DNA of 62,509 bases, the filler included, from Dugesia japonica (Eukaryota), in NCBI GenBank assembly GCA_001938525.1. It is 5 parts of 5 records of this genome, joined end to end, with 100 filler letters (N's around TTAATTAATTAA, not from the genome) between each part and the next. Parts side by side here need not be neighbours in the genome. Positions count along the whole stretch, not along the records: positions 42,379 to 51,579 come from MQRL01636108.1; 4 more parts are not named here. One strand, written 5' to 3'. Below are positions 6,786 to 57,700 of this stretch, piece by piece. The stretch's first letter is position 1. Every line of letters begins with the position of its first letter. Made by a program: the position numbers and the translations under genes. A model generated the notes under the pieces. That model was not told where the DNA came from, searched no databases, and was given only the letters and a program-made list of their open reading frames with translations.

Positions 6786-7041
6786 TGTTGGAGTCCCAAC
6801 TGAGTTAAGTGGAAAGGTTTGTGGCTGGGGAAAAACAGCCCTCAGGGAGACCCGTTCAAGAATTTGACCTACCGCCCCTAGGGTAGGTTTTCAGTTCATA
6901 GCGGTTGACCCCTTCTCTTAATGGGAGGTACGCACCTATAAACCTTTATATTCGGGTTCATTGTTTTCCCTATCGTTACTAACTCAAGAAAGAAATTACG
7001 ATTCTGATTGCATACATTTTATTTGAAGAAAAAAAAAATTA

Positions 7042-7425
7042 TTATAGTAAATCCAGTGCCCCTGGATCCAACCGCTGGTTTGGTTCAGTCACCAAGAAGT
7101 TTAAGGCGGGGGTGTCATCATCGTCGTCCCATTGCGCCACTGTTGGGTTGCCTATTTGTCAGGATAGATCGGCAATGTATTATTTCAAGAACTCGATCTT
7201 CCTCAGTAACAATTGCTTATTTTTGGCTTCCAAGGCCTTTGTTTGAACTACAAGGTCATTCTGCTTTTTTACAATTATAACTAATTTCTTAATCAGTCTG
7301 TCCTTCTGCGACAATTGTTTAAGTAAGGTTCGGTCTATCTTACGTTTTAAATGCCTTTCGATAAGCAGTCGGCGCATGATGCGATGGCACCGACGAAGAC
7401 TGGTCGGAAAATTGATGTGTGGCAC
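7042..7425 (-). pseudogene. Insertion cassette 4: ~127-aa basic/coiled-coil ORF with two premature stops
   Basis: The frame continues past the TAA at 7180 as *YIADLS*QIGNPTVAQWDDDDDTPALNFLVTEPNQRLDPGALDLL*. Preceded by TTTTAG acceptor; followed by AATAAA (7018-7023). Confidence 0.5.
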
Positions 7426-7562
7426 TAAAATAAATTAAAGTTAATTCTCAAATAAAATTTACACAATGACTGAGATGAATACCCACACAATGAAAAACAA
7501 TGAAAAGAAAATCCATAATAAGGTTCAAACACAAGGTTTATTAACAAAAAATAGTGTGTGGA

Positions 7563-7921
7563 TTAACTCTTAGGGGTCTGTGTGCTTTTCTCGAACATCA
7601 AGTGTTCGAGCGGCATGGAAGCCTTCAACTTCAAAACATCCCCTACCAGTTTATTTTCTCGGTCTTGGTAGGACCGGATCATGTCAACTAGTGACTCCAC
7701 TTGCCCCTTCCACACTCTTTCTTGGGCATGGGAGGCCTCGACTTCCTTTCTGAAAGCCAAACATTTTTTTCGGTAGAAGCTTACCTTACTATTAGCGTTG
7801 GATGTATCCGCCTCCTACTTACATTTAGCGAGACGATAAAGATCCCACGTCATCTCGCGGTCCTCGCTGTCCTCTCGCACCTTTTTTGTAGGAGCCGAAA
7901 TACGATTCAGTGAAGAGTGCA
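7563..7921 (-). pseudogene. Insertion cassette 3: coiled-coil ORF with one stop and one frameshift
   Basis: HSSLNRISAPTKKVREDSEDREMTWDLYRLAKCK*...LAFRKEVEASHAQERVWKGQVESLVDMIRSYQDRENKL. Acceptor TATTTAG at 7922-7928; AATAAA at 7537-7542. Confidence 0.5.
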
Positions 7922-8087
7922 CTAAATATTATTATGGTTAAATATGATAATTACAAGGGCTATTGGATTAATATTAAGAAAACGAAAGATCATCTCATGC
8001 AACAAAAGAAATATAATGCAAGAATACCAAACTTTTATTTATTTATTTCTTTTTTATTTATAATTTATTTCAAGCAACAGACAAAAT

Positions 8088-8441
8088 TTAGGTAGTAGGA
8101 TTAATATTGTTGATAGTAGGGGCCGTATTCTCACTGTCGATGACACCAGACGGTTCCCTAATTCCCCACACGAGGTTAGTTATAAACGCCTGTACAGCAG
8201 GAGCTGGGGGTAGGGTGGGTGCCTGGTAGAAGGAGGTTGCAAGAGTGCGATCTGGGCCTGTCCAATTCTGATATCGCTGCCTCTCACCAAAATCTCTTAT
8301 CCGAGAGATAATTGACTCTACTGGAGGTAAGTTAGTCCTATCGACTAAGATTCCAGCATCAAGATTGTGGGGATTATGATGCCGGCACAAAATGAGTTGT
8401 CGGGTTTTCCTATTCACGATTCTTTCCCAGATGGACTCCAT
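8088..8441 (-). CDS. Insertion cassette 2: intact 117-aa unknown protein
   Basis: ATG-to-TAA ORF, GC-richer than its flanks. Acceptor TTTATAG lies 1 nt before the ATG; AATAAA at 8034-8058. Confidence 0.55.
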   Translation of the reverse strand: MESIWERIVNRKTRQLILCRHHNPHNLDAGILVDRTNLPPVESIISRIRDFGERQRYQNWTGPDRTLATSFYQAPTLPPAPAVQAFITNLVWGIREPSGVIDSENTAPTINNINPTT

Positions 8442-8592
8442 TCTATAAATAATAGGAATTCTAATATGCAGTTTCCTTTAAATTAATCAATAGTAAATGA
8501 AATACACATCAAAATAGAACGAAACAACTTGAATTTTTTATTTTTATACACCAAAGGCTATTAACCTCTTACACTCTTATGTTAAGCGGTGT

Positions 8593-8775
8593 CTATTCCC
8601 CATCTAAACCTACGGATATCAATAGAGGAAACATTTCCGCAAAACACTGGAGATCGGTTTCATCCGGGTGTTCAATCCGCCCCTTGGTTAATAGGTGGGA
8701 AATCAACTGTTTTAGTCGCGTAGATCGTCGTTGTTGCCTAATTCATTTGAGCGTATGATGCAACTCGTCTGGCAT
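8593..8775 (-). pseudogene. Insertion cassette 1: 60-aa ORF with one internal TGA
   Basis: MPDELHHTLK*IRQQRRSTRLKQLISHLLTKGRIEHPDETDLQCFAEMFPLLISVGLDGE*. Acceptor TTTTTTTAG ends at 8779; AATAAA at 8537-8542. Confidence 0.4.
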
Positions 8776-11239
8776 GAACTAAAAAAATGAATTATAAGTC
8801 TCAGACAAATGATTCCGAGTCCTGCACAACTACTTTACCCCCCGGTCATGTCTGCTTAAGATAGCACCCCATCCATCCGTACTGTATCGTTCACCAAATA
8901 ATTTTAGCTTAAACTCATGGGTAGTGAAGGGGAATGATGTGCAACATTCGTCATACTGAGGATAATGAGTTTTATTTATTTTTGAAGGATGACGATCTAT
9001 ACACTTCGACAAGTATACTGAACATAATAATAATAATACTAAGGGTAATGAAGATGATTTTAATATGATTAATAGTAAACCCATAATATCAATCATTAAT
9101 GATAATTCTAATAAAGTAAGAGTTGATACTAACGATAACAATGATATTGACTCTAATAATGTAGTATTAATCATAATAACAATAATCATAATATTACTAG
9201 CAATGTTATCCACTATGAGAGTGGAAATAGCATTAGTAACAATAATATCAATGATACTAAAGATTTTACTACTAGTGATGTCACTGGTACGATAATAAGA
9301 GTGATGATTTTAATAGTAATACTATGATAACTATAACTGTATTACTACTAACAATAATAATACTAATGTGAATAAAACTGATGTTAATAATAATAGGAAT
9401 ATCAATAGTACTTTTAATATTAGGATTGTAAATAATAAATTAAGAGAACCGCAATTCTATCAATTATGATGAATTTAAATTTCTTCTGGAGTTATATAAT
9501 TCGATTTTCCGTATTTTGCTGTTACCTAGAAACATCCTATGGTGATATGATTATGATAACTTCCTTTGAGTTGGTATGGAAGTATAATGTTCCGTTGTAG
9601 GTGTTTGGCCGAAGCGAACCCGGAATGACAGTATTATATAACTACTCACTCATCAGAGTATGCACACTCTAACCGATAATGCAATTCATGATCCAATCTA
9701 TACACCAACTACAACTCATGAGCGAAATGGGTTAACTTGGTATTGCTGGAAAATTTATCAATTAGGGAATTACTCATTGATTTAAACTCTCTATCCATGC
9801 CTAGTGGAANNNNNNNNNNTTTAGACATATCAATGGATTTTTCATTTCTAGATTTTACAAGTAATTTGTTGTTTTTGTTAAATAAACGATTAAAATTACA
9901 ATGTATTTTCTCTTTTAATTCTTGAATGTGGGAGCTATGATCATAAAATTAAACCGATCTGTTTATCAGTGTTGGTACAGATTTCTGTATTCTTAATTAT
10001 AAAAGGTTTAGTTCAAAAATCAAAATATTTTGTAACTACTTATTCAATTTACGGAGAGATCGAGTGGGAACTACCTAAAAAATATATTTTATTATTTAAA
10101 AAAAGGCGTTGCATCTAAATTTTATCACTTAATAAATTTACGTGAAAAATTAACATCAAGATTTTCATATATAAGAATTTATTACCATAAATAATATGTA
10201 AATTTACCANATAAAAACATTTATCATAAACAGAATAATATTTTACTTCTTGTTGGTACTAAAAGATTTCTGCAACGGGTTTTTTGTGAATAGTTAATTG
10301 ACTTGGCAATTCCTGGTTTTTCACCTGGGGTTTGATATTCCTTTATTTTCCTTTTTCTGGTAGAAAGAGAAATTAACCACAACACAATTAGGTATTTAAA
10401 TTACTGTAGTTCTCCGATATTTCACGACAAATTGGTGCGCGATAATTAATTAATAAGTTTCGTTTGAGGATTGAACAATTAATTTTCTTGACAATTCGTT
10501 AATTTTGATGATTCGCAATTAAATTTTCACTGATTATTTCACGTACGTGAATATGCAAAATTTTTTGTGTTTTTTCTGTTAAAGTCAGGGGTTTTTTTAT
10601 ACGATTTCTGAGACACCCCGACTTGTCTGGCATTGGCCAGTTATTTTTAATTTGGCTAATTTGAATTTTATTGGATCTGGTGCCAATCTTCCAAGAATTT
10701 TGGAGTTCTGATCGATAGTTATTTTTAGACTGGCACATGATAACTGTGTCTTTGTTTTACTTTTACTTTTAGATATCTGATTGGTTTGACCTTGTGGACT
10801 CTACAACAACCCTCTGGAAGGTGGTAGGTTTTTTCTATTTAGCAATTCTGATGCATCTTGTTGCTCCTTTTTCATATTCTCTTGTCCGGGTTCTTTTCAA
10901 CTTTCTTGACCGAAGTTATCTGGTTAAAACAGATTTTTAACTAATTTCGCTTCTTTTTATTTTTAAAATTAATTAATTTTCATTTGTTAATTAATTATTT
11001 TCCATATCGCTTTTCTTAATTGTTGATTATTAATTTAATAATTTTTCTTAATTTCCAATCGTAAATTGCTTTTATGTTACCCGGTTCTTCATATTCATCG
11101 TTGATTTTATTTNNNNNNNNNCTAATGGTGATTACATGCTTTATATTTCATTATTGGTAACTTTAGTGTTTCTGCTATTCTTTTCCGTTGATTTGGCTTC
11201 TCGGCCTTATTCCCGTTTAGCGGGTAATTCACCCCAACA

Positions 11240-11900
11240 ATACTCTGTCGATTACTTCAAAGTGTTGATCTTTATTTTTCGTAAATATTGGAATGTCATC
11301 AAGATAAACCATGACTCCATTGATTCCGCCAACCACTTTTTTTGTGATCTACTCTTGAAATGTACCTGGTACCACTGCAATGCCAAATGACATTCTATTA
11401 AAACAATATTGTCCATGTTTCGTTGAAAACGCCGTTTTTTCTTGAGCTCTACATGATAGTACACATTTCTCAAATCTATTGAACTGAAATATTTGGCTTC
11501 ATCAAACTTGTCCAACATTTCATCGACATTAGGCATCGGGAAGGCTTGTCTTTTCGCTACTGCATTCAATTGTCTAAAATCCAAACATATTCTGATGTTT
11601 TTCTTTTCCTCTTTCCAAACACAGATCAGTAGGTGATCCATGGTGAGTTGCATTTCCGGATAATAATATTCTCGAAAAGGTTTTAGATAGCTTCTTTTCA
11701 ATTTTAGATTCTAAATTCATTGGTTGACTATACGGTTTTACGTTGATTGGTTCACCACTTGTGATTATTTTGTGTCTTATCAGATGTGTACGCCCTACAT
11801 CCAATTTATCTTCCCTAAAAGCATCTTCTTTACTTTCAATTATTTTTATAATCATTGATCCTCTTTAATCTTCAAAATGTTTAAAGCTCTTCAATCGTTC
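11240..11900 (-). mobile_element. Ty3/Gypsy reverse transcriptase N-terminal part (continuation of copy 1)
   Basis: HKIITSGEPINVKPY and IRICLDFRQLNAVAKRQAFPMPNVDEMLDKFDEAKYFSSIDL are Gypsy RT motifs; frameshifted. Confidence 0.92.
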
Positions 11901-12496: not shown

Positions 12497-15400
12497 AATC
12501 TGATAGTGATGAAGATATTGAATATAAATTTAAAATTGAATTTCTAGAAATGGAAGATGTGAATATTATTAATTCAATAAATATGCTAGATAAATATTTT
12601 AAATTAGAAAGATTCATATCGCCCTTTACATCATGCATGTCGTTATGGTCGAGTTAAATTTGCAAAATTATTAATATCTTATCATTGTGATATTCATTCA
12701 TGCACAAAAGTACTTTCTGTTTTAAATATTATGAATAAATATTGAAATAGAATGGTTTTCAACCAATACATTTGGCCTGTGAGAATGGTCATATTGATAT
12801 TGTTAAACTATTGATTGAAAATAATTGCTTTATTAATGCGTCTGACAAAGTAATTTATTTGTTTTTAATGTAATTTTTGAATAAATCCTAATTTAGCTAG
12901 GATATCAACCGATACATTTAGCATGCATGTCTGGACATATTGATATTGTTAAACTATTGATCTTACACAAATCTAATATTAATAAAAAAGATAAAATCGT
13001 AAATATTTTTATTACTAAATCAATAATATTAATTCAGTATGGATATCAACCAATACATTTAGCATGTATGCATGGTCATGTTGATATTGTAAAACTATTG
13101 ATTGCAAACAAATGTAATATCAATGCTTCTCTTTATGTATTTTATTCGTTATTTTCTAAATAATCTGTGGATAATTATTAATTCAGTGTGGATATCAACC
13201 GATTCATTTGGCATGTACGAATGGTCATATTGATGTTGTGAAAGAATTGATTTTAAATAATTGCGTTATTGATAAAAAAGATAAAATTGTAATTTGTTAT
13301 TTGTTTAATAATTAATAAGTAAATATTGATTTAGTTTGGATATCAATCGATACATTTGGCATGTATGAATTGTCATATTGAGGTTGTGAAAATATTGATC
13401 GATAACAAATGTGATATCAATGCATCTGATCAAATTGTAATCTGTTATTTACTAAATAATTTAAGAATAAATATTGAATTAGTATGCATGTAGACCGATA
13501 CATTTGGCATGTATGAANNNNNNNNNNNNNNNNNNNNNNNNNNNNNNNGATAATGATTGCGATATAAATGTATTGTCAAAAGTATTTTGTCAATGTAAAT
13601 TATATGAAATATAATAATCAATCTCTGCAGTATCAAGAATCACCAATCGATATTGCAATACAAAATGGACATGATGAAATTATTCGTATTTTAAATATTT
13701 CAAATGTAAATGTTAATTTTATTTTCTCATCAATTATTATGAAACAATTNNNNNNNNNNNNNNNNNNNNNNNNNNNNNNNNNNNNGAAGATTCTTGAAGA
13801 AGATAATATTCGACAATTCGGATAATCGCAAAAAAATAACAAAACAACATTTTCATCAAAACATTTAATTTAATATTAACTGTTTAATTTTCCAGCAATT
13901 ATTCTCACAATAGTTCTAAAAAACCGCGTAAAACAAGTAACAAATGTGCTGCGTTATTTGATATTTTTGGATTATTAAGAATTTCGATATTAGAAAATAA
14001 ATATTTATTTTNATTAACTACAATTTATAGATTCGAACACTTGCTAAAGCGATGGATTTACAATGCGGAGTTAATTGCGATCATAAATTTTGTTTAAGGA
14101 GTTAGATTTTATATTTGTATTTTCATTTGATTTATATAAATTATTTTATTAATGATTTTCAATTAATTGCGATATTTTAGCTATGGAAAATGACAAACTT
14201 AAAAAGGGTGAACGTATTGGATCAGGATCATTTGGAAAGGTCTATAAATATAAAATATCAAATACAAATCGTGAAATTGTTATCAAGAAAATAATATATT
14301 TTCGTGAAGATAAAAAAAATATTGAAGGAAATATAAATAAGTTTTCATCTCAAATAATTCATAGAAATATTGTTAGACATTTTGGAGTTTTGGAAAAATC
14401 TGGGAAGTTTTACATATTTATGGAGTACATTTCGGGGGTGATTTTGTTTATTTTGAATAATTTTTTATTAAATCTATTTCAGGGCTCCCTTAAAGATTTA
14501 ATTGATAATTTAGACGAGAGAAATCAATCGATAGAATATTCGAAAGTCATAAAATTTAGTAAACAAATATTAAAAGCTCTCGAATTCATTCATTCTCAAG
14601 GAATTATTCACAGAGATATCAAACGTAATTAATTGATTTGATTAATCGATTGATTGATTGATAATTTGTTGTTATTCAGCTGCAAATATATTGCTGGATC
14701 GTGATGAAACATTGAAATTAGCAGATTTTGGTTTAAGCACTTCATTGCGTATTGAATCGATGTATGAAACAAATGGAAAAGCTGAAACATTTTGTGGTAC
14801 TCCGAATTATTTGGCTCCAGAGATTGTATTTGGTGAACCGTATGATTTTCCAGTTGATATTTGGTCCACTGGAGCATCGATTATCCATATGATAACAGGT
14901 TGTTTGCATTGATTAATTGAATTAATTATATAAAACTGTTTTATTTGTTATCTGAACAATAAACTAGCATCTTTGTTACAATGTTTTCCCCTGTAAAATC
15001 TTTATTTATAAATAATCTTTTACATTCTTAAAATAAACTTCAATCTCTTCATTTCCACATTTGTAATTAATCGAATTTTGTAAATCTTTGACAGCATCTT
15101 TCTCTTTCTCGAATGCCAAACATAAACGAACCTGAAACTCTTCAACATTTTTCACCGTCTTCCCATATTCTTCCTGCAAATCTTCATCTAACAAACAATA
15201 AATTAATATCTCTTGTTGTTTCTGCTGAGTAATAGCTTTAGCATGAAAATATAATTCACAACGCTTGCAATGTTATTTCATCTAGAGAATACATTTGGTA
15301 ATAACATATCGATCCACAGAGATTTCCTATAAATGTTGATTAAATTACCTCTTTTATCATTTTTCAACATGCCTAGTAAGAGGATGTCTCATTTTAATTA

Positions 15401-20532: not shown

Positions 20533-22320
20533 TGTTAGGTAAATCTTCAATTGGTAATTCATTTTCTAAATCACAACAAATATTTTTAGACATAATTTAT
20601 TTCACGACTANAACACATGTTTGATAAGATAAATATGATTAAAAATGTGATTACAATTAATTAAATATTAATATTCAGTTTAATCGATTTCTATTAGATG
20701 AAATTAATAATTATTTCCCCATATCCCCCTTATTAAGTTTTTCCACATTTCTTTTTAATCGCTGTCCATTTTCTCCTTGTACCGCGTACCGTCTTTCGTG
20801 AATTTTCTCAATTATTCGATTAGGTTCTTCAAATCTGTCTTGACTTTTTTTCTTGATTCTACCTTGATGAGTGCAAAATCGCCCACTTTAAATTCTCTTT
20901 TAGTAATCACGTTTGAAATGTTTTCTTTAGTTCTATTTGAAACGTCTGACTCACCACTTTTCTCTGCTAATTTTCTTTCTAAATTTTCATCAACCCAATA
21001 AAACCATCTCAGCCGGACTCTTTCCAGTCGTCTTCTGCATTGTTGCGTTCATTGTAACTTCTTTTTCAGGTAAAATATCTGCCCAATCTGTTGTCTTTCT
21101 TTCCTGAAGTGTTCCATTAATCGAATCTTGAATTGTTCTGAACTGTCTTTCAATTTGTTTGATTGAATTTTGATGATTAGGACTCGAAAAGCAAAGTTTA
21201 TTATTTAGCTTCAGTGCAAACTCTCTCATAACTCTGGATTCAAAAGCTTTCCCACAATTTAATCTTATCTCTCTTGGACATTTAAATCTCAATATACACT
21301 TTTTAGCATTTCGTATTGTTTCCTCGTCTTGTTTAGACAATGCTATAAGAACCAGATATTTACTGTAATGGTCGATTATTCCAAGAATATATTTTTTCCG
21401 CACACCTTTTCCTGCATTGGCCCACATATATCTGTAAATATGACTGCAAACAATTTGGTAGCTTCTAATCTTTTTGTCTTCTATTTAGTTGCGGTCTTCA
21501 CTACTTTTGTCTTCTGAAAAATTTCACAACTACGAACTATCTTCTGTATTTGACCCCACAAATTATTCGCAATATATTTGTTTCTCATATATTTGTACAC
21601 CTTTTCAACTCCTCCATAGCATAATAATTTATGTATTTTTTCTATTGTCTCATGTATTTTATTATCCGGAATTTTTATTTTCTTGTTTAAATCTGTTTCC
21701 TCAGAAATTTTTAATTGCTCTCCTCTTTTCTTTTCAATTATATTTAGTACTCTTGTTTTAATTTTTGCATTTCCAAGAAACTTTAAGAAACTTACACTTT
21801 TTGGGAATAATTCCTAAATCAGCCTTCATTATTTTCATCAATACTCTGTCAATTACTTCATAGTGTTCTTCTTTATTGTTCGTAAATATTAGACTGTCGT
21901 CAGGATATACCATGGCTGCATTGATTCCGTCTACCACTTTTTTATCATCATCTCCTGAAATGTACCTGGTGCGCTGCGATGCCAAATTAATTTCTATTAA
22001 AACAATATTGTCCGTGCTTGGTTGAGATTCTTCTTCGAGCCCTACCTGATAGGGCTCTATTCCAAATCTATTGAACTGAAATATTTGGTTATATCTAACC
22101 TTTACAATTGCAATTATTGCGAGAATAATTTTTGGACATAATCATTGATCGTTTTATAGAATTCATTTAATATAAAAGCTTTGATCAAAGTCAATTCCTG
22201 ACGAAGACAAGGTCAAAATATCGAATTGTTATCAAATATCAATATAAAAAACAAAAAAAAAATTTTGATAAAAGCTTTTATATTAAAGGGATACATCTAA
22301 CTTGTCCATCATTTCATTTA
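20533..22320 (-). mobile_element. Ty3/Gypsy element copy 2 (3' LTR 20533-20723, integrase, internally deleted RT/RNase H)
   Basis: KYILGIIDHYSKYL...CPREIRLNCGKAFES...QIERQFRTI (integrase) and VYPDDSLIF (degenerate YxDD). Colinear with 4764-6785 plus 11240-11520. Confidence 0.9.
22101..22290. mobile_element. Penelope-like pLTR fragment with inverted segment and hammerhead (22192-22228, + strand, G12A), inserted in the Gypsy RT
   Basis: caattc-CTGACGA-A-GAC-aag-GTC-AAAA-TA-TC-gaattg. Inverted arms TTTAATATAAAAGCTTT / AAAGCTTTTATATTAAA. ATCTAAC occurs on both flanks. Confidence 0.7.
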
Positions 22321-43600: not shown

Positions 43601-44485
43601 AATTTCAGAAGATAAATTATTATGTCCAGATTTTACAGCTGAAATTAATAATGTTAACTTTTCAAATAATGCTATTGGATTTCCTGGCTTTATGGTTTTA
43701 GCTCCTTGTCCACTTTTTGTTGCCCTTGTGGTTGTTGGTATTTTCTTAGTTTTTTGTGTGGATAAAAAATCACCTTCTTCTGATTCACTATTTAATTTAA
43801 TATGTTCAGAATCAGATTTAGGGTGTTCTGATTCTGATTCTGCTTCTAGTTTAGTTATTTTTTCTTTTTTTGTTCTTTTAGGTTTTTCTTTTTCAATATC
43901 TACTTTTCTAAATTTTTTCTTTAATTTATTAACATAATCACAATTAGTAGGAATTGGAGCTATAAATTTTAAATAAACCTCAATTTCTTCAGGTGTTTCT
44001 TTTTTATCTAAATTTCCTAAAATCATTCTAAATATTCCATCGGAGTATGGAATAACTTCTGATTTAAATAAGAAATAATTATCACCATCTTCTCCGTCAG
44101 AGAATAAATGAATTTTATTTCCTTTTAGATTTATTTCCATAAAACTTTTTATTTTATCGATAGAAGCAATATCTAATTTAGAAAATTTAGGAATAATTGT
44201 TTGAGTTAATTTTCCAGTGGTATTAATATTTTCAATTGAATATTCAGGAATAAATGGAATTACATTTTCATTTAAAAAGAATTTTGTTAAATCTCTAGAT
44301 TCTATTATTTGTTCTTTTATTGGTTGTATTGGTTTAGATTTTTTTATTGCAGTGATAGTTGGTTTTTGTAAAATTGATAAGTCACTTTGTAAATTATTAT
44401 AATCAAGAACATTACTACAAAAATAATTATTATATTGTTCTTGAGCTTTAATTAGAGCTTTTAATTCTTTAATTCTTTCTTCCAT
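43601..44485 (-). CDS. Polinton conserved ORF (C-terminal L..L.LL..A..SG.N...EI motif; the GasderminX-type gene of adintoviruses); true end lies in the N gap
   Basis: ALFEKLTLLISAVKSGHNNLSSEI after a charged low-complexity linker and KSGQG. Confidence 0.6.
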
Positions 44486-44497
44486 TTTATATAGATT

Positions 44498-45050
44498 TAA
44501 TTTTGTTCAGTTTCTGTTTGTCCGGAGGCCAGCGAAGCGTTTTCAGTTTCAGATTCAGTTTCTTCATCAACTGTGTTTTCCTTTATGTATGCTATAAGGA
44601 TTAAGATATATTCCATTTCCATGTTGAATTATATGGGTTCCATTTTTAAACTTTTTTGTTAACCCTTTAAATTTAGGATCAATATTTTTTAAATATTTAT
44701 GAATTGCTGAACCTTGATATGGATTTAAAAATATACCTGTTCCTTGTGTTAATTTTTTTGCTTCTACTTGTTTTTGTAATTCAACTAATTCAGTTTCTTT
44801 TTGTATTTTAATAGCATTTCTAGATTCTGTAACAGTTTTTGCAATTCCAGCTGCTAATCCAGATGTAGTTGCTAATCCTGCAATTATTGCTGGAATGGCA
44901 GCTAGAAATGCAAATCCACCTTCTTGCTACGGGTTTAAGTTCATCTTTAACTTTTTTAGAAATATAATAATTTTTACCGTTGATCTTTACAGATTTACAT
45001 TTTTTAGAATTTATAATTTTAATTAGTTCTTCTTCTGTTGCTTCGGTCAT
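44498..45050 (-). pseudogene. pX/core-protein-like ORF, frameshifted
   Basis: After a frameshift at ~44925: EGGFAFLAAIPAIIAGLATTSGLAAGIAK...QGTGIFLNPY, and after a second shift HGNGIYLNPY. Confidence 0.6.
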
Positions 45051-48000
45051 TTATTAATATTATTATTTGAGCAAGGAGTACAGTGATTTATTTTGTCTAA
45101 TCTTAAATGCCATATGTTACATTTTACACAATAATATTTATTTCCATTTGGCCATGTTCTTGTTGCATCATCTTCTATAATTCTTTTATCATCAAATGCT
45201 ATTAATGCTATTTTCTTTTGTTCTACTAATTCAATATTATGACAATCTGATTTTAAAGAATAATTAGTTCCATAAATTATTTTCTTTGGATCATTTAATA
45301 CTAAATCAAAATCTTTCATTAATAATTTATTATTTTTCTTAACACCTTTATTTCTAGAATCAAAACCAATCTCTTTATGGGTCGCTGTGCTTGCTGTGTG
45401 GGCTGCGCTATATGAATAAGCATAAGATTTTGCTTTTATAAAATTACCTTGAGTTATTTCACAATTGGGTTTTTCATCTTTCATTTGAAATAAATTATCT
45501 CCAAGTAGGCTTTCTAATTTTANNANATTATCTCTATGTTTTATTTCAACAAAGATACAATCTGTATTTTTTATTATCAATGGAAATCCACAATTAAATG
45601 TTCCATCTTCAGTTTCAATGTCATATACCCATTCATCAGCTTCTCTTAAAAATTTTACACTTTGAAAATTATATGTAACATCTTTAGGATTTAATTCTCC
45701 AAGTTCAAATTCACCTATAACACTTAAATATGTGCTGCTAAGATAATATGCTTTAGCTAAAGATATTTTATCTGGAAATTTTCTATTTTTAAATTTTAAT
45801 TGTCTAGTAAACATTTCATTNNNNNNNNNNNNNNNNNNNNNNNNNNNNNNNNNNNNNNNNNNNNNNNNNNNNNNNNNNNNNNNNNNNNNNNNNNNNNNNN
45901 NNNNNNNNNNNNNNNNNCCGTGTGTTCTAACTCTATAAATCTTTTTATGAGTTTTGTGTTTTATTACTTTTTTTAGTGGAACCCAATCGCTTTTAGTCCA
46001 AATTTCATAATCTTCTGGATTCGAATAATATTTATTATTATATCTACATAAATCTTTTTAATTATTATTTTATTATTTCTTTTTAGTATTATTGGAGTGT
46101 CAGCTGTTACACTGTCAGTATAATGAATTTTATAGTTATCTTCACCAATTAAAGGTTGCATTTGATTGTAAATAAAATCATACATAACTTGTTTTGCATG
46201 TTCAAGAATAGTAAATCCAATATATGGAAATTTAATATATCTTAATTTACCTTTTATCATATTCATTGCTGCAACAGTGGCTTCATTTGAATCATTTAAT
46301 GAAAAGATTTTACTAGATTTAAATGTTGTTTTAGCTGCAAATCTTTGATAATATTTGTCAGTATCAACAATTTCAATATTACAACGATTTCTAATATTTT
46401 CAAGGGTTTTTCCATAGAATGCATTTAACATTAATTTATAAATATAATCTCCAAATACATCTTTAATTCTTTTAGATTCTTTTCTTAATGCAATTAATTT
46501 ATAAACATAATCTTTAAACCATGGAGATGTTTTCATTTTAATTTTTTTATGAATTTTTATTAGTTTCATACCAATTTTTAAATAGAGATCTAATGTACTT
46601 CCAAGACACACATAATTTTTCTTATCAAATTGATTCAATGTAAGTTTAACATTATCTTTTGACAATTTTCTATTAAAACTTAATTGATAATTACTTAACA
46701 TTTCATTTGTAATATTTATTTTCTCTGGACATAATGGGAAATATTTAGTTCTATCATGTAATTCTTTTGGATAATCAAGATCAACTTCATAAATAAAATT
46801 CATTTTATCAGTTGCTGGTTCATAACACAGTTCGTTGCACTCGTACATTTCACCTGTTGGTAATGGTCTTGTCATGCATGATGCATATAAAGAATTTTCA
46901 TCAATATATTTTATAAATGTTTCTTCTAATAAATCATTAAAATATTCATCTGGAATAAATTCATGTTCATTCATTGTTTTAAGAAGATCTAGATATTGTG
47001 TTTTATTTAATTTTCTAGGATTTGATTTTTCATTATTTGAAAATACTTGACGTTCACCTAGAACACCAGAATAGCCACCTCAAATTCCAGATTCAACTGT
47101 TAAGAACATATCATAAGTTTCAGGTTTAGCATATTTTAAATAATCATTTGCATTTAACATTCAAGTTTCCCATGAATATCCTGGTGCAGAATATGAATAA
47201 CAAGGATCTAATCTAAGAAGATTATTTAAACATGAATTACGAAAGTTTTCTAAGAAATCAGATAATATTAACACATCAAGTTTCATATAATGTAACATAT
47301 AATTCCATAAATTATCAAATTGTGCAAAATCATTATAAAATATTTGATAGTCTTCATCAGATATTTCTTTTTGAGTTAGAGTGTTAAAGAAATCTTTTTT
47401 CTCTGGTATTTTGTTAGATTTTAATAATGTTTNNNNNNNNNNNNNNNNNNNNNNNNNNNNNNNNNNNNNNNNNNNNNNNNNNNNNNNNNNNNNNNNNNNN
47501 NNNNNNNNNNNNNNNNNNNNNNNNNNNNNNNNNNNNNNNNNNNNNNNNNNNNNNNNNNNNNNNNNNNNNNNNNNNNNNNNNNNNNNNNNNNNNNNNNNNN
47601 NNNNNNNNNNNNNNNNNNNNNNNTAATTATCTGATGTGTGTGGAATTATCTTTTTTACTTTTCCTGGAAATTTTGTTAATAATTCTCGGAAAAATAAATG
47701 ATTATCATAACCAGATGCATTATGAAAGTAAAATGGTATAATTAAATTTTTAATACTTTTATCATTTAAATTACATTTATTACATGAATATCCACGAAAT
47801 TTACCTGTGAAATGATTATGGTCTATAACTGGATCTTTTTTAACTTGTCCGTGGGCCAGCTTCGCGATTTTTTTGTTACAATAATAACAATTTTGATTTT
47901 TAAATGCTGGAACTTCTTCGGGTAATTCTAATATTAATTTATTATCTTTAATATCACTTAATTTATTATTAGTGTCATTTAATAATTTAAAGAATTTATC

Positions 48001-48632
48001 ATAAATATTTTCACCTGAAAATTCAAAATATTCACTTTTTAGGAGATTTTGGTGTTCACTGTGAAGATAAATTCCTAAAGATAAAGCTTTTTGTTTTTTC
48101 CTTGAATTTGTATAAGCTTCAAAATCACCAATTAATACAAATGGTATTTTATTTTTCATGTAAAATTTATTAAAGTAATAATAATTATTATATTGAAATA
48201 CAATGTTATTTGGTCTGTGGTTAATACAAGCATCTTGATGTTTAATTAATAATTCTTCACTTGATTAACAATTCATACATCGTATGCATGGATAATTTTT
48301 ATTTCTATTTTATTGAAAAATACAGTTAAATCTCGACAAAAAACATAATGATTTTTATATATTAATAAGTTACATTTATTTTCTTCTGGTTTAGGATTTC
48401 TTGTGTGATTTGAAATGTAAAGTGGTTCAAGTTTTTTATTAGCATTTACACCGAAAACATTTATTTTATAGTTATTTAATTTCTCNAATAAATGTATTTC
48501 GCCGATGTTCATAGGGAATGTTAAATTTGAATATTTTAATTCTGATAAATATGGAATGTAATTAGTTACACGTGTTGGATTATCAGGTATATGTTTATGT
48601 GCTAAAATTGAATAAAGAAAACATTTATCACA
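45047..48632 (-). pseudogene. Protein-primed family B DNA polymerase (pPolB) with EndoVII-like Zn module and an intein; stops and frameshifts
   Basis: ExoI IGDFEAY, ExoII FHNASGYD, ExoIII YMKLDV, GI*GG, motif A YIDENSLY, motif B KLMLNAFYGK, motif C YTD[intein]TDC, KAKSY, KGV, KKIALIAFDDKR. N-terminal DKCFLYSIL...HYVF region. CxxC...DHNH.TG.FRG..C..CN module. Confidence 0.95.
45566..46113 (-). other. Mini-intein in pPolB motif C (Pol-c site)
   Basis: Starts SVTADTPIILK (block A). After a frameshift: EIWTKSDWVPLKKVIKHKTHKKIYRVRTH. Ends VYDIETEDGTFNCGFPLIIKN (blocks F/G) followed by +1 Thr. Confidence 0.9.
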
Positions 48633-50582
48633 TGAGAAACATAGTTTGATTATAAATATATAATTTTAAGTAAAGTCTAAACACCACAAATCATTGTAAA
48701 TAATGCGAAATTATTTTTGTAGATGAGAAGGTAGTTAAAACAAATGAAAACTTTAAATAACTAAATTTGGGTGAAATAATTAATTTGAACATAAAATATA
48801 TTATACGTGAGATTTATTGAGGTTACTAACAAGTTTGAGAGAAACTTGAGTTATTGTAAAATTTTAAGAGGTTTGATCCCAGAGTTGATGTGCGATAGAT
48901 GGAGTTACGATGTGACCAAATAATTTGATTGGAAATTGGTTTTATTAATTATATTTGACGAAGTATTTTATTGGAGGACTTTTGTAAAAGTCAACATTGA
49001 GTATGCCAAGATTTTATTTGTTGTAATATTTTTTGTGATTTTTGAAAAGTTAACATGCACGTGAACGTAAAAATATACTATAAATAGATTCATTTATACA
49101 TGGAATTTGCAGATTTTGTGTTGAAAAATAACGTTTATTCAGTTTGATCGGATTCAATTCAATCAGAGTAATTATTATTCATTTGGGAGAATTAATTAAC
49201 AGACGCACCTTATTAAACTTAGTCAGATATTTGATTACATTCAACTTGAGCTCTAGTGTCGTGTATACCCGGACAATATGATCATAATTGTAATTATGGT
49301 AATTATAGTAATATGAAATTAAAATTTGTATTTGTAATTTCAAATACATTTATAGTAATATAAAATTAAACAATTAATATATTTATAGATTGTTAACAAT
49401 TAACATAATTGTATTTGAAATTAAAAATGGACAGTTTAATAATTTTTTTAACATTAGATTTTTTAATGATGATTTAAATTTAGGGAAATCTAATAAAAGG
49501 TTACATTATTATATGGTCAATGTTACTTAATTATATGGTATATGATGTTTAAAGAATTTCTTTTTAAAAATTTCCATCTTAAAACTTTCGTTTTAAAATT
49601 TAATTTCATAAAAATTAACTTTACCATTGATCTGTGTATATTAAAAAAATATTTTGAAAAACAAATTTAAATAAAGTTTATTTTTAATTGTAAAGATCAA
49701 AACGATATTTAAAGGTTCCATTAATATGGCAAAAAATGTGACAAAGATGTCTAATATGTTCTAAATAATATAAAATATAACATGTATTGAATAAGTAACA
49801 GTTGAGTTAGAATTCCTTGACATTTTGCTGTTACGAGTTTAGTCAATTATTGACGATGATGACTGATTGTTTTTAAACAATTGTAGCGGTGTTCAATTTA
49901 TAACCGGATGTGACCGGACGGAGGCACTGCTACCAGAGATGCACATACCGTAATCGAGTTTAACTTACTTAATACTACGCAAGTTGATCGATAAGTTAAA
50001 TTATGAACTAACTCGATTAGATGCTAACAGACCTTGATGAATTCGCTCCGTCGAACTGTACATGCTGGAGAAGGTATTGCAATGGTATGGAAGGAAATCT
50101 TTGAAAATATTTAAAAATTCAACGATCCAATTCGAAAATTTTTTAACCAATAAAACAAAATTTTTTTTTCATCAGGAAAACATAAATGTTCTCACCACTT
50201 GGTATATGTTGGCAACGAATGTGGAGGAGGTGATGTACATTAATCTACCTACTCGAGAATTCTCAAGAATTTGAAAATTATCTGTCGTTTCTCGAGAATT
50301 AAAATGTCAAAAATATGAGAAAACCTAAAAACTATTTAAGTCAAAAGTAAACGAAAATCGCGTGTTGCTGTATCAAACTTTTACACCACGGATTTAATAC
50401 GCTAGTAAGACGCGATTAATTAATTATTAAAAAATTAAAATTAAAACCAATTATAACTGCTTGGTATTTTAATATTTTTATGAATATTTTGTTTTAATCA
50501 GTCACAAATAAAAGTTATACAGATTACTAATAAATAATCTTCATTTATTCCTGTTATTTCTTTTTAAAAAAAACAATAATAA

Positions 50583-50787
50583 ACAATTTCAATAATTGCG
50601 AGAATAATTGAGGACATAACCATTGATCGTTTAACAGAATTCCTTTAAAATAAAAGCTTCGATCAAACTTTTTTGTTTTTTTATTGATATTTGATAACAA
50701 TTCGATATTTTGACTTAGTCTTCTTCAGAAATTGAAATCAATAAAAAATCAAAAAAATTTATCGAAGCTTTTATTTTAAATGAATAA
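50583..50787. mobile_element. Penelope-like pLTR fragment with inverted arm and hammerhead (50698-50734, - strand, G12A)
   Basis: Minus strand caattt-CTGAAGA-A-GAC-taa-GTC-AAAA-TA-TC-gaattg. Arms TTTAAAATAAAAGCTTCGAT / ATCGAAGCTTTTATTTTAAA. Confidence 0.72.
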
Positions 50788-50929
50788 TAATAAACCTCGA
50801 TTTTATTTTAATTAATATTAAATCTTTTAACCGATTGATCATTATTAATTGTTACTATTTTTACTGAATTAACATTTGTTGGGCTGAAACAGCACAGATC
50901 GCTAAAGAATTATAGCTTCTATTATATTA

Positions 50930-51340
50930 TTTTTTTTACGCATTACTCGTCTATTAATAGTGGGTACCCCTTTGAGTAATTACTCACGCAATCATTTATC
51001 TGCGTTGTTTATTTATTATCTCCTCACATACACACTCAATAATTTATCTGCGTGAGTAATTTTTTTCTTCCCGCCCCCAGCGCAGCTTTTATTTAATGTC
51101 AAGCGGAATCGAGGCCCATGCACGCGACAAAGCACAACAGGGGAGAAGTTAAATAGTGTGCACTAGGGCGAAAAAAGACACGCACAGAAATTATTGCGTG
51201 AGTAATTACTCAGAAGGACTTACCGTGGGTGCGCATTACTACTAGTTGAGTAGTGCGCAAATAAAAAAAGCGCAGAGCGCAGTTAAATAAAACGTGGGGG
51301 ATCGGAAATATATAATGCGTAATTACACGCGTAATTCCGT
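50930..51340. repeat. GC-enriched nested inverted-repeat/palindrome region
   Basis: 50971-50997 is a 25/27 inverted match to 51188-51214; both contain the palindrome TGAGTAATTACTCA. Hairpin at 51230-51259. Confidence 0.75.
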
Positions 51341-51362
51341 TAAAATATCATAATTAATAAAT

Positions 51363-51579
51363 ATGGGTAGCACAATAGAGAATTCGTTAAATGAGACAAC
51401 AGATTCAATAAAACCACTATTGAAAAGACCAATCGACGGCGGCAATGGTGGAGGATATGAAACTTTTAAACCGGTCGAACCAAGAATACCATTACAAGTA
51501 ACAAGATCAAGTTTTAGAAAATATCAAGAAGAATATAATAAATATCTGGAGGAGTTAGGAAAATGGAATAGAAATAAAC
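51363..51579 (+). CDS. Unknown ORF, 3'-truncated by contig end
   Basis: MGSTIENS...GGNGGGYETF...; TATATAA ~50 nt upstream; open to the linker. Confidence 0.45.
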
Positions 51580-51960: not shown

Positions 51961-54433
51961 ACAGATAAGATATTTTTTATTTATTTATTTTCCTTTCTTT
52001 TTATTAATTTATTTTCTTTAATAAATGTTACTATTTACAAAAAAACTATTTCCGATTTAAAAGATTTATTAAATATTAAACTTTTTCTAACATTTATTTT
52101 GTTAATTGAGATAAAGTTACAATTGAAATTTCTCTCGCAGTTTCGAATAAATAATATCTACGATTTGTATTATTAATTCCTAAGTATACATTAATAAAAT
52201 TAATTTTAAAATTAATTTTAAAATTAATAGAACCTCATTACGATGAAATATTTAAGTCATTGAGACTTAATTCTTTAATTTTGATCAGTAACAATCATTT
52301 GCACATTTGGTTGTGTATCGATCAATTCATCATCACCAATTTCCTTGTTTGGTTGCGAATCAATTATTCCATCGTCAACAAATTTTTCAACCATGAATTT
52401 CAGGTTTGTGAATTTTTCAGAAAATTCTTCTAAATTATTTATTTTAAAATAATAATTTTATTTGAAAANTTTTTAAATTTATACTAGTTTGTTAACCAAT
52501 AAAAAAAACACTCAATACAATCAAATAACAACAAAAGTTGCACAGGAACGGTTGACTTCATTGTGATATTTTATGAAAACATTATTGTGTGTATTGTATA
52601 ATGTCCGTAATGTAAGCTTTTATTCTTATATGTACAAACTCTTTTATCATTGTTATTAGATAGAGCGACTTTGTGGCATTTAATACTGTTTTTCGATGTA
52701 ATCCTAAATTGATCCAGAGACCGTTTTAATCTGATTATAAGAGTCAATGTATAGCTGATGAGTAATATCATTATTATTATCATAATTCTAAAGTAATGAT
52801 AACGTGTAATAATTAAATAACAATAAATTTGTTTTATTCATTGTTGACTTTGTAATATTTTTTGTTGAATTTGCCATTCCCTATTTTGTTCATAGTCTAA
52901 AAAACTATAAAATTATATATTACAAAATAATAAATTTACTTTTTCAATTGCAAAAAATTTAAGATTTTTAAAAATATTTTTCAAATTATCATAAAAATAT
53001 TTGAGTAAGCTTTTTATACTAAATTAGTTATCCAAAAAAATTTTGATACATAAACTGATAATACCACAATGTAACATATTTTACAAATGAAATAGTTCCA
53101 CGTGACTGTAAAGATGGATTTTCGATAATGATATGGAAGAAGTATAAAAACGTTGAACTAGAGCTTTTATAACCACTATTGTTCTCCACTTTAAAATGTT
53201 ACCAGAATAAAGTTAGGTAAAGATTTGTTCTTTATACAACCACGTAATTTCTTTACTAATTGCAAAAGCAATAATTTCCTTAGTTTTAATCGAATAAACT
53301 ATATTTTGCTTATTTAATCCTATTTGATGACAAGCCAATACTGTAGGTTTACCACGTCCGAGCCTAACCAACAATTTTGTGTTTAGTAATTTATATTTAG
53401 GTTTGTTGAATGCAGATTCAAAACGAATTTTTAAAGATACTCGTTTTATTCGATTGTAAGCATTAACACCTTAAATAAGATTTGTGTTGATCTATGAAAT
53501 AAAATTGAAATGAACCTCATAGAGAATGGTTTAGATAATTTAATAGACTTTTTTCTATCTGTTTTTGCTCCATACTCCATTGCTATAAAACAAATATTCT
53601 TACTGTTACCATTATAATTTAATATAGTTTCAATCAATGTTTTTAAGTAAAATTTCTAATTCCACATTCAGTTTTCAAATTATTAAATTGAAGAATTAAT
53701 ATGGAAGAATTACTAAAACGTGTATGCAACATACAGTTACTAGGAATCAATAACTACTTTTATTATTAACGACTTTTACTTCTATATACAATAAAGTATC
53801 ATTCAAATTCAAAAATGCTGTTTATGAACCACTTAAAAGAAACTCTACATCATTTCTCAATTCAGAAATTGAATTCATTGAAAACACATTTTCAAATATA
53901 CCATATTCGACTACTGTTTGAAGAGATGGGCGATCAAAAATTTAATTCAAATTTTCCATAAATCATTTTTCGAATATTGTTTCATGTCCTTTAATTCGCT
54001 AGTTTATAAGTGATGCGTTTGACGTTTTACATTTATTATTTCTAGTCTGTTGCTTTTTGATTATTTCGATATAATATTACTTATACCACTTGGTATTTCA
54101 TTTGCTATACTTGTTGGTAAGATGTTGACTACTTTCGAGATCATACTAGTTGCTCTACTAAGTAAGAAAGATACTACATTACCAAGTTCAGATAATGCGT
54201 TAGATTTTAATGTTGGTAATATTTTTTAATTATTAAATAGAGTACATCTTGAGTTGTTTTCATATCAAAGGAACCAAAACGTTTAAGAACAGGAAGTGAA
54301 AACCTACCAATTATTCTCAACTAACCAAATCCATACCTTTTTTCCACCAGCTTGATTAATACAATACAATGAAATTATATCAGAATTAGTTATTTATTTG
54401 TCGAAAATGTAAACCAAACAGAATAAAAAACTT

Positions 54434-54700: not shown

Positions 54701-57700
54701 CACGTAAAGTCATGCTCTTAAAATCCATCTGTTAGTTGAAATAAAATTTATTGATTATTTTAAAACAAAGAACATACTTAAATTTATTGATTAATTTATC
54801 ATGCTAGTAAAATTAATTTATAATTGATACATAAGTGACTAAATTTCCGGAAATATTCCAACCAACCAAATATAAATCATCTTTAAACTTTATAATAATT
54901 TACTGTAGAATAAGCTATTTTATTTTTACTGTTTCTAATTGAATAATNATTTTAAAATTCCATGTATGCAGATTTCAATAATTTAGATGTTACTCAGTTA
55001 GACTTATAAACAAATCTAAATCTGTGTACGATATGCTTGGCTTCAAATATGAAAACAAGTAAAATTTTTGACTTATCGAATACTTCAACAATTTCCTTTT
55101 CATTGACACTCAACATTTTTTTGTTTATTGTTAATTGTTATATAGTTATATTATGTGATATAATTTTCTTTGTCATATATTCAATTTTTGACTTGCTATA
55201 TAGTGAAAATAGAGAAAATACAAAGGTGAAATTTAACATCGCTAATTCCCACTGACTTTCTAAGTAAGTATAGGATTTTGAGGTTCAATGTTGAATTTAC
55301 TAGCATTATTATCTGGACGAATAAGAAGACAATATTACTAGGCAAATGATATATATAAAATATTCGATTTTATCAGTATTTTGTTGGTTAACTAACGGCA
55401 AAGAAAATATCCAAGTAAGTTTTTGATCCATGACACTTTATTCCTACCGCTTCCCTTTGATTTTATAATTTTTTCTATTTTAAATATTCTTGGTGATAAT
55501 TCCTGTTCAAAATATTTTCCTTGCATGATTTATTTTCATAATCTTTAATGACATACACGACTGGATTTTGTTTGGTATTGATTTTTGATATTTGAAATTC
55601 TCCACCGCTCCAATTACTATTGAAATTCGTGATAAGTTGAGATGCAATTAGTTTGGATATTCTAACATGATCGCCAAATTTGCATTTTGGTTTCTTAATT
55701 GCTTTTGGTTGTTGTTGTGATTACAACAACAGCTTTAATTGCTTATTTGTTAACATAATAATCAGTCTTGTTTCATTTAAACCCTTTAACTTATGAATAG
55801 GTTTTAGTAAAAATTCATACAAAGTTTTTTTTACCAGTTTGTACAAATTATTTTTTCAAAGCATCTATAAATCCACCACAAATTTCTCTATTAGGGGTTG
55901 AACCTACATACCCTACATTAAAAGAATCTTCACTTTCAGATAGCATTTATTACTGTATCAAAAATATAATTTCTATAATGTTATAAATTACACAAATTTT
56001 ATTCTATAAAAATTGACAAAATATAATTCAAAATATAAAAATTTATTAAATATAATAAAATGACCTACTCAACTTTTAAAAATCATCTACAACTGTTTAC
56101 CAAATTATATTATTTAAAAAACTTTATATTAACACAGCAAAATAAATATTAATCAATAAATAATAAATTACACACATAGAAATAAGCTAATAATGATCAT
56201 AATAACTTAAAACATTCCTAATATTTAATTATTTCCTTACAGTCTTCATGTGCAACTTTGTACTGTGAGAATACAGTACAATGGTTTATTTATAAATGAT
56301 TAATAATATTTAACTTTAGAATTATAGAATTCTTTACCCAAATTCATTTGTAAATTAACTGAATGTCTATCTTTGAACATTTATTTAATGGCTGGTTCCA
56401 TATCATTAGCAGAATTTGATTTGACTGAAATGGCTCTTGCAAATCTACTGATACATGTCAAAATGTTCTTGTATTCTTTATTAATTATCAAATATGGAAT
56501 CATTACTATCAAATCATCAATACCAAGCGTTTTATATGCTTGATAAGAATTTGCTTATTATTAGGATAAGTCTGTCATGTTAGAAAATCAACAACTGTTG
56601 ATCTCTAGAATTTTTAAAGATAACTTAGTATTGCACGTTCAAATTACACGTTCTGAGAATTCCTTTTTAATGAAATAGATTTTGATAGGTCTTGATATTT
56701 TTGTAAATAAATTATTAAATTCTTTTNNNNNNNNNNNNNNNNNNNNNNNNNNNNNNNNNNNNNNNNNNNNNNTTTATTTCCCATCTCTTGCTCCAATTTG
56801 TGTCAAAGTTCTTTATAATTTTCATTTTTTTATTACAGAACCCTGATTGACATAATCTATGATCTTCATATTTTATTAAATTTTAATTTAAGAAAATGTG
56901 ATTTCAATAATTTACATACAAACAGAGTTTTCCCACAACCACTGGGATCAACAATTTACTAAACTGCATAACTTCTTAACTTCTTCATTTAAATTTATAA
57001 GCAATTATCACAGTGTTTATATTGTTTAATGAACTGATCAAGTTATTTCCACAAAATCATCTAAATATTTATTGAAAGTCATTAATAATAATAGTTAACA
57101 TTAATTGTAAATGTAAAGTAAAATAAATGTTTTTTAAATGTACATCTTTGTTTTTTGACTGGTTTGGTTATAAATTTTAATAAAACATTATCTGTTTTTA
57201 AAATAAAAAAAGTAATGGGATAAATTTTAACAGTTAAATAATATTTTTAAAAACTTTAACTTTTAAATAATATAAATTCATATCACATTGAGACTTTATT
57301 AATAAACACATGTAATTGTTACTATCAAGTCTAACAAAAGAAAGTAACAGTATTTATTGTTACTTCTTTTAACGTTTTTTTTATTTTCCATATAAAACTA
57401 ACGTGATTTATCGATTTATTGAAACATTTGATTTTAACTTGAACTAACCATTTATTTGGATTATCAAACGCCATCATAATAGTAAATAATATTACTTGGA
57501 ACACATTAATAATTGGAGTTTTTAAGAAACTCAATTTATGTTGATGGTGACATCAGTTGACATAATATTTTCTTTTGATAAAAATTATGGAAATTTTTTT
57601 TAAAATAATAAACAATTTATGTAAATTTACCGCTTAAATACTTGGTGGTGCTGCATGTATGTAAATGGTATAAATCTTCATTGCTCGTTCTTTATTCATC

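Follow-up and report, generated by a model that had tools for sequence, protein, structure and literature searches.

A probable mini-intein splitting motif C of a Polinton polymerase from Dugesia japonica, within a Polinton intein lineage that is likely to have spread by homing

Introduction

The window analysed here is a 62,509-nt stretch of DNA (filler included) from Dugesia japonica (assembly GCA_001938525.1), and its fourth stretch, positions 42379-51579, is the entire 9,201-nt contig MQRL01636108.1. On the minus strand of this contig, the gene for a Polinton protein-primed DNA polymerase (pPolB) is interrupted at 45566..46113 by an insert that splits motif C as YTD|TD. This raises the question of what the insert is, whether it could be removed at the protein level, and how it came to be in an animal genome.

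In the parts of Green et al. (2018, PMC5784728) available to us, eukaryotic inteins are listed for fungi, algae, protists and NCLDVs, and metazoan genomes are said to lack inteins. Mimivirus and archaeal PolB are known to carry the Pol-c allele (Ogata et al. 2005, PMC549080, in excerpt). HNH and VSR insertions in pPolB have been described by Jeong et al. (2023, PMC10748475), whose excerpted text calls the HNH insertion unique to oomycete and terrestrial-nematode pPolB2. In the accessible passages of Krupovic et al. (2024, PMC11161782) it is suggested, and no more than suggested, that bare nuclease insertions in pPolB stem from intein invasions. A first-pass annotation of the locus had proposed an intein that homed directly from a giant virus into the element and that gates its replicase by splicing.

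Results

The insert and the polymerase copy that carries it

The insert is 548 nt long, including 97 N (45821-45917), and sits between KIHYTD and TDCIFV. It begins with SVTADTP (from 46113) and ends with VYDIETEDGTFNCGFPLIIKN (at 45566), after which the polymerase continues with TDCIF. The splicing residues that had been read at first pass are all present in the window: Ser1 of block A at 46111..46113, VYDIET of block F with its conserved Asp at 45611..45628, and the terminal Lys-Asn of block G followed by the +1 Thr of the C-extein at 45563..45571 (all minus strand). Since natural empty alleles exist at the exact site, the boundaries of the insert are fixed and the splitting of motif C is confirmed. 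The position between YxD and TD, together with 39% identity to the Mimivirus intein, upholds the assignment to the Pol-c site. The size of about 180 aa that had been estimated was too small, the commonest sister insert being 573 nt or 191 aa, and on the intein tree the window copy (L001) groups within the 191-aa clade.

Upstream of the insert, the polymerase frame (N-extein up to YTD, 46114..48629, minus strand) matched PF03175 with 55 bits against a cut-off of 25.8, while frame reading places the C-extein, from TDCIF to the stop, at 45047..45565 (minus strand). The N-extein is broken: about 280 N-terminal residues are gone when compared with a sister copy, and it carries a frameshift, in-frame stops and an N gap. 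In the assembled sequence of the insert the frame shifts near 46050, as had been noted earlier. This genomic copy of the polymerase gene is dead. The C-terminal 85 aa of its insert matched no Pfam family, and the family matches given below come from sister copies. An Endonuclease VII/HNH-type domain was also found within the polymerase, separate from the intein, at 47767..47907 on the minus strand (PF02945, 31.2 bits, cut-off 23.6); a PF02945-type insertion is also present in the polymerase of public protein P0052.

Sister copies in the same genome were collected with the 3' part of the insert (881 candidates; 40 scored, at 81-100% identity, and 30 of these 40 taken) and with the upstream flank (1,489 candidates, of which 40 were scored and 30 fetched). 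When the nuclease part of the public protein P0001 served as query, 140 of the 150 hits scored had E<=0.1. The set of 20 distinct inserts used below contains in-frame copies, frameshifted ones being left out.

Evidence that the insert is an intein predicted to splice

That the insert is an intein, as first proposed, was borne out by profile and structure searches. TIGR01445 matched four of four 191-aa sister inserts at 32.3-33.7 bits (cut-off 24.5), and PF14890 scored 18.5-25.2 bits, below its cut-off of 35.8. An AlphaFold model built from 12 copies had a pLDDT of 71, with the C-terminal residues poorly predicted; all 12 Foldseek matches to this model at E<=0.001 were inteins (TM-scores 0.39-0.49). 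When the mini-intein sequence was searched against solved structures, the Nanoarchaeum split intein alone was matched at E<0.001.

Splicing blocks were defined following the available part of PMC7765530. Block B reads T-[EVQ]-D-H in 19 of the 20 distinct in-frame sister inserts, with Thr in all 20 and His in 19, and it falls in the stretch that is the N gap of the window copy (45821..45917), where it had been expected and is unreadable. The block F Asp is present in all 20 sister inserts. Ser1, the terminal Asn and the +1 Thr were demanded by the search pattern, therefore their conservation in the 20 inserts is not independent evidence. In class 1 inteins a penultimate His is usual, not universal. 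All 20 sister inserts have Lys in place of His at this position. The first-pass annotation was right that the Lys is present and wrong to see it as an oddity, because 125 of 197 related public inteins, including that of Mimivirus, end in KN (63 have the penultimate His) and the Lys is therefore a family trait.

Selection at the codon level was estimated from in-frame copies by pooled pairwise comparison, the pairs being non-independent. In the minis dN/dS was 0.29 for the N-splicing region, 0.20 for the C-splicing region and 0.80 for the linker; in the full alleles it was 0.34 and 0.17 for the two splicing regions and 0.29 for the nuclease core (6 copies). Taken together, the sequence evidence indicates with high confidence that the polymerase of these animal Polintons carries a splicing-competent intein lineage.

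It could be argued that the insert is instead removed as an RNA intron, or that it is a Hint domain that cleaves without splicing, as the penultimate His is missing and PF14890 stays below its cut-off. We consider this highly improbable, since a domain that only cleaved would leave motif C in two pieces, inteins of this family usually have Lys at the penultimate position, and the open frame is under codon-level selection across copies. At the DNA level the insert ends are AG..AT, not GT..AG; the RNA-intron reading was rejected on these ends and on the codon-level selection.

The host element and its genome

The insert lies in an animal genome, as claimed at first pass. The Wnt profile PF00110 gave 34 matches above cut-off in the genome and none in 14 control genomes, and the window contains Src-family kinase exons of a host gene at 29694-32287 (plus strand), of which 31922-32251 matches Src-family kinases. 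By eye, an ankyrin-repeat and kinase host gene was seen at 12897-14912 (plus strand), Gypsy-type and Tc1/mariner-type remnants at 5319-11864, 20812-22141 and 26469-29158, and a second Polinton remnant, consisting of a decayed pPolB C-terminus and a Polinton integrase C-terminus, at 52571-52837 and 55475-55720 (minus strand).

Besides pPolB, the Polinton genes of the window comprise a weak adenain match, which is an adenain-like cysteine protease ORF at 42829..43320 on the minus strand (PF00770, E=0.0039, 17.3 bits, below the cut-off of 21.3). There are three further conserved Polinton ORFs: one directly 3' of the polymerase at 44567..45050, which is in two frames here and had no Pfam match over the part scanned, one with no assigned function at 43421..44506, and one truncated by the contig end at 42379..42868 (all minus strand). 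A 17-kb intein-bearing sister contig had PF21738, PF00665, PF04665 and PF03175 above cut-off and PF00770 as a weak match, corresponding to a double-jelly-roll capsid, an rve integrase with a PLA2-like domain, an A32 ATPase, the polymerase and a weak adenain. By this predicted gene set (pPolB, integrase, capsid, packaging ATPase and protease) the host element belongs to the Polintons/Mavericks, in agreement with the earlier reading. Upstream of the truncated polymerase there is a GC-richer block with inverted and palindromic repeats at 50939-51255 (TGAGTAATTACTCA twice) and a divergent short ORF at 51354-51579.

Another explanation to be considered is that the element belongs to a co-sequenced virus or symbiont and lies outside the animal genome, as positions 42379-51579 make up an entire contig of 9.2 kb without clear host flank. 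The upstream comparison found no element terminus in this contig. An AGTAG-starting terminus (one end of the element) was shared by one intein-bearing copy and another contig, whose flanks are unrelated, therefore indicating integration; the opposite end and a target-site duplication were not seen. With the 881 first-look candidates, the 81-100% identity of the 40 scored, the decay of many copies by stops and frameshifts, and the presence of the element in runs with the same organism label from several studies, a non-genomic source has very little in its favour. The empty-site joints of one contig run, which is possibly related to the source of the assembly, were not counted as independent.

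For transcription, 12 partial reads, none of them at least 95% alike, were found in three RNA runs of about 5,200 million letters, therefore the element is nearly silent in those three libraries; the sequencing-run search listed no RNA run as carrying it. Of 53 candidate starts, 19 have AAA immediately before them (compared with 8% of all ATG) and 14 have TATAAA no further than 45 nt away (background 9%), in a set that includes wrong starts. TATAAA or TAAA stands immediately before many Polinton starts (L071-L087; 44485-44500 and 45048-45060 in the window), unlike a spaced TATA box. These motifs hint at promoters of the cytoplasmic-virus type and are a lead only.

Full, decayed, mini and empty alleles in one genome

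The survey of copies that had been called for revealed a whole series of alleles at the motif-C site of this one genome: empty, full with LAGLIDADG (338-353 aa), decayed (305-315 aa) and mini (188-212 aa). Of the 20 distinct in-frame inserts, nine are 188-191 aa long, three 198-212, two 305-315 and six 338-353. A 347-aa allele matched PF14528 with 38.5 bits (cut-off 22.5). Both LAGLIDADG motifs are present in the 346-353-aa inserts where readable and are lost in those of 305 and 315 aa. The two motifs are also absent from the window mini; in the alignment with full-length sister inteins the minis retain the last helix of the LAGLIDADG region, and DKISLAKAYYL in the window (45740..45772, minus strand) is its remnant, as had been suspected.

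Among the 30 loci fetched with the upstream flank, 21 were empty, seven were filled, one was the window itself and one stopped short of the site. Empty alleles, which read HY[TSN]D|T(D) without insert, therefore make up 21 of 28 informative loci, a count that is not an allele frequency because loci were sampled by similarity. Most full-length alleles examined contain stops, gaps or frameshifts. The polymerase frame ran uninterrupted through the intein in five of 16 listed sister stretches, therefore intein-bearing genes were under selection until recently.

The earlier proposal that splicing gates the replicase was not supported, because empty alleles are common. The idea that the intein is kept as a regulator, with conditional splicing controlling the Polinton replicase, could draw on the site in a catalytic motif, the conserved splicing residues and the abundance of the 191-aa mini (24 rows on the intein tree). 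However, empty alleles are the majority near the window copy and the need to splice already predicts the conservation, so we regard a regulatory role as very unlikely.

Relatives and origin of the intein

A search with a full allele gave 391 matches, of which the best eight were Polinton-type polymerases or fragments (41-58% identity). The next best were family-B PolBs, two of which are named, Mimiviridae sp. ChoanoV1 and Mimivirus, both with 39% intein identity (E 2e-67 for Mimivirus); the remaining PolB matches were taken as giant-virus-type, judged by their domains. Kinship with giant-virus PolB inteins, as first proposed, was thus recovered, while the closest relatives, at 44-58% identity, reside in other Polinton polymerases.

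A tree was made from 59 full-length inteins (six from this genome, nine public Polinton, 38 PolB, five topoisomerase and one other), the PolB inteins being chosen from 105 at <62% identity and P0052, P0178 and P0200 being left out. All 15 Polinton inteins formed one clade (100/99) placed among the PolB inteins. A sister position of this clade, with the PolB inteins monophyletic to its exclusion, was not rejected in favour of the nested one (AU p=0.078), and the nesting among PolB inteins is thus not significant. The proposal that the intein homed straight from a giant virus into the element was not supported, and a transfer from giant viruses, if any, would be older than this Polinton intein family, because its nearest relatives are other Polinton inteins. 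On these sequence comparisons an old and indirect giant-virus donor is somewhat favoured, and a virophage-like phase of the Polinton in a giant virus is rather doubtful, the signs of it being indirect, namely the intein kinship and the A-rich TATAAA beside start codons. Viral contigs searched with the full-length allele gave 29 pattern matches, none of which was confirmed.

The sister of this genome's inteins is that of P0001 (100/99, 58% identity), whose polymerase was not similar by BLAST in the 420 residues that precede the site (E=0.74). Five other Polinton hosts have 34-37% polymerase identity over the region before the site. As the closest intein sits in a dissimilar polymerase, the intein must have been in Polintons for a long time and has passed from one polymerase class to another. 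We infer that the two classes are the Alpha and Beta classes of PMC8502044, as these are set out in the accessible text. A search at the level of 50% clusters (150 best of 1749) added 143 new rows, in which a motif screen found no further full pPolB host; in 31 of these rows the site was not readable.

Some related inteins were seen in other settings. P0178, a Polinton-type polymerase with a related intein, is filed in a clam-symbiont bacterial bin; it is likely to be mis-binned host Polinton DNA, which would point to a mollusc host. Residues 267-620 of P0198 are a Pol-c-type intein in an ADP-ribosylglycohydrolase (PF03747) at GGD|TDT, which looks like the polymerase motif, and related inteins also occur in topoisomerase II at DxD|TD.

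Probable movement between polymerase backgrounds

The presence of the intein does not simply follow the phylogeny of the flanks. On the upstream-flank tree (56 copies) the filled or empty state needs 13 changes, at least five of them forced by supported branches, and on the downstream-flank tree (51 copies) it needs 11, at least three of them forced. These trees are short (240-330 columns) and retain some clustering of state (4-7 of 500 shuffles were as low). The sister of the window copy on the flank tree is an empty allele (99/90). On the intein tree the 191-aa minis group in a single clade (24 of 40 rows, 100/99), whereas the upstream tree, made from 28 filled copies, requires nine changes for this class, and its monophyly was rejected there (17 of 28 rows; AU p=4.3e-9, with two long-branch rows and rows without known insert length left out). 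The main caveat on these intein and flank mosaics is chimeric assembly of repeats: the assembly consists of 648,594 contigs, therefore mosaic copies could be assembly products. A scan for linkage between intein state and the bases near the site found no peak in the genome, therefore no recent single sweep is visible.

Among public proteins, cluster 4 (15 of 136 members listed) contains six filled proteins of 1537-1539 aa and six empty ones of 905-1193 aa, which are 94-98% identical. Of the 50 residues surrounding the site, 10-14 differ in the empty proteins, as against 10-54 of the remaining 850-1140. Most of the differences that set the empty alleles of this cluster (P0022, P0141-P0148) apart from the filled ones, and from one another, lie no more than 25 residues from the site. 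Such site-centred divergence could reflect co-conversion or escape from the homing nuclease. Cluster 3 contains an exact empty allele.

These patterns could also be explained by a real intein whose homing ended long ago, with one old insertion followed by ordinary recombination or chimeric assembly that shuffles the alleles. The missing co-conversion peak in the genome, the fragmented assembly and the many broken full alleles would agree with this, as would the scatter of a nuclease-free mini that is beyond the reach of homing in cis. However, the nuclease core is under purifying selection, the divergence between filled and empty alleles in cluster 4 is centred on the site, and plain recombination over long flanks would not place the closest intein in an unrelated polymerase class. 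An end to homing long ago is therefore unlikely in our view. We favour, with good but not full confidence, a mini-intein in Polinton motif C that belongs to a Polinton-specific lineage whose full-length members probably spread by endonuclease homing.

Discussion

In the favoured reading, Ser1 would start splicing with an N-O shift, aided by the Thr and His of block B and the Asp of block F, as the conserved residues suggest for the standard class 1 route. The +1 Thr would then take over the N-extein and the terminal Asn would cyclise, so that motif C is re-formed; without splicing, the polymerase would be dead. In full alleles, the LAGLIDADG domain may cut the empty motif-C site of another copy, whose repair would copy the intein in. 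The nuclease would then decay (305-315 aa) and be deleted (188-212 aa), and the mini could still reach other polymerase backgrounds through recombination or homing in trans. At the origin of the lineage there may have been one old capture from a giant-virus-type PolB intein, followed by movement among Polinton lineages, and this is the weaker part of the proposal.

A bolder version can be put forward tentatively, and we think it is less probable than not: animal Polintons would have an intein lineage of their own, obtained from a giant virus whose factory they used, with a live LAGLIDADG drive, minis aided in trans and jumps between polymerase classes. If this were true, protein splicing and intein homing would be encoded in an animal germline genome.

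In the Goddard-Burt model, inteins pass through a cycle of invasion, decay and loss. With empty, full, decayed and mini alleles side by side, this genome offers a natural time series of that cycle. The intein may also help to trace contacts of animal Polintons with giant viruses, and of Polinton lineages with one another, which bears on whether Polintons have an infectious or virophage-like phase. The statement that inteins are absent from metazoan genomes, as worded in the available part of PMC5784728, needs the qualifier 'host genes', and the same absence is a premise for intein-directed antimicrobials. The idea of intein invasion of pPolB, as it stands in the accessible part of PMC11161782, now has a testable case.

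Our literature search found no report of a Polinton intein; Repbase Reports, InBase, most subscription journals and supplements lay outside the search and may affect the question of novelty. The word 'intein' does not occur in the main texts of PMC8097293, PMC10748475 and PMC8502044, and PMC10710043 contains neither 'polinton' nor 'maverick'. The report of an intein in fish Mavericks mentioned at first pass was not found, PMC8097293 being the text examined for it. In the portions available of PMC12220804, PMC5718144, PMC13768754 and PMC3671162, inteins are mentioned in general terms only. Within the literature searched, this is the first complete intein in a protein-primed Polinton polymerase that we could find.

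The host element resembles described Polintons/Mavericks (adintoviruses) in having pPolB, an rve integrase, a double-jelly-roll capsid, an A32 ATPase, adenain and an HNH-type insertion in the polymerase. As far as the excerpt of PMC10748475 goes, the PF02945 domain of the window polymerase resembles the HNH insertion of oomycete and terrestrial-nematode pPolB2. Unlike the pPolB insertions described in the texts available, which are bare HNH or VSR, the intein of this genome is complete in its full-length alleles, with Hint and LAGLIDADG, and lies at a different site.

Animal Hedgehog/Hint domains share the Hint fold. According to the accessible parts of PMC5784728 and PMC7765530, however, these differ in being parts of host genes that undergo C-terminal autocleavage, with no homing nuclease and no empty alleles. 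The inteins covered in the available part of Green et al. 2018 (PMC5784728) likewise include full and mini forms, and those of viral DNA polymerases are the commonest viral class there. The closest known system is the Mimivirus Pol-c intein, which is 351 aa long and ends KN|TDS. Both occupy the same motif-C site (YGD|TDS in Mimivirus, from the excerpted source, and Y[TS]D|TD here), both have Ser1, a terminal Lys-Asn and a +1 Thr, and in both the full form is about 350 aa long with LAGLIDADG, at 39% identity. They differ in that the intein described here resides in a protein-primed Polinton PolB, which upstream of the site shows no similarity by BLAST to the Mimivirus polymerase, is present in many integrated copies in an animal genome and belongs to a clade of Polinton inteins of its own.
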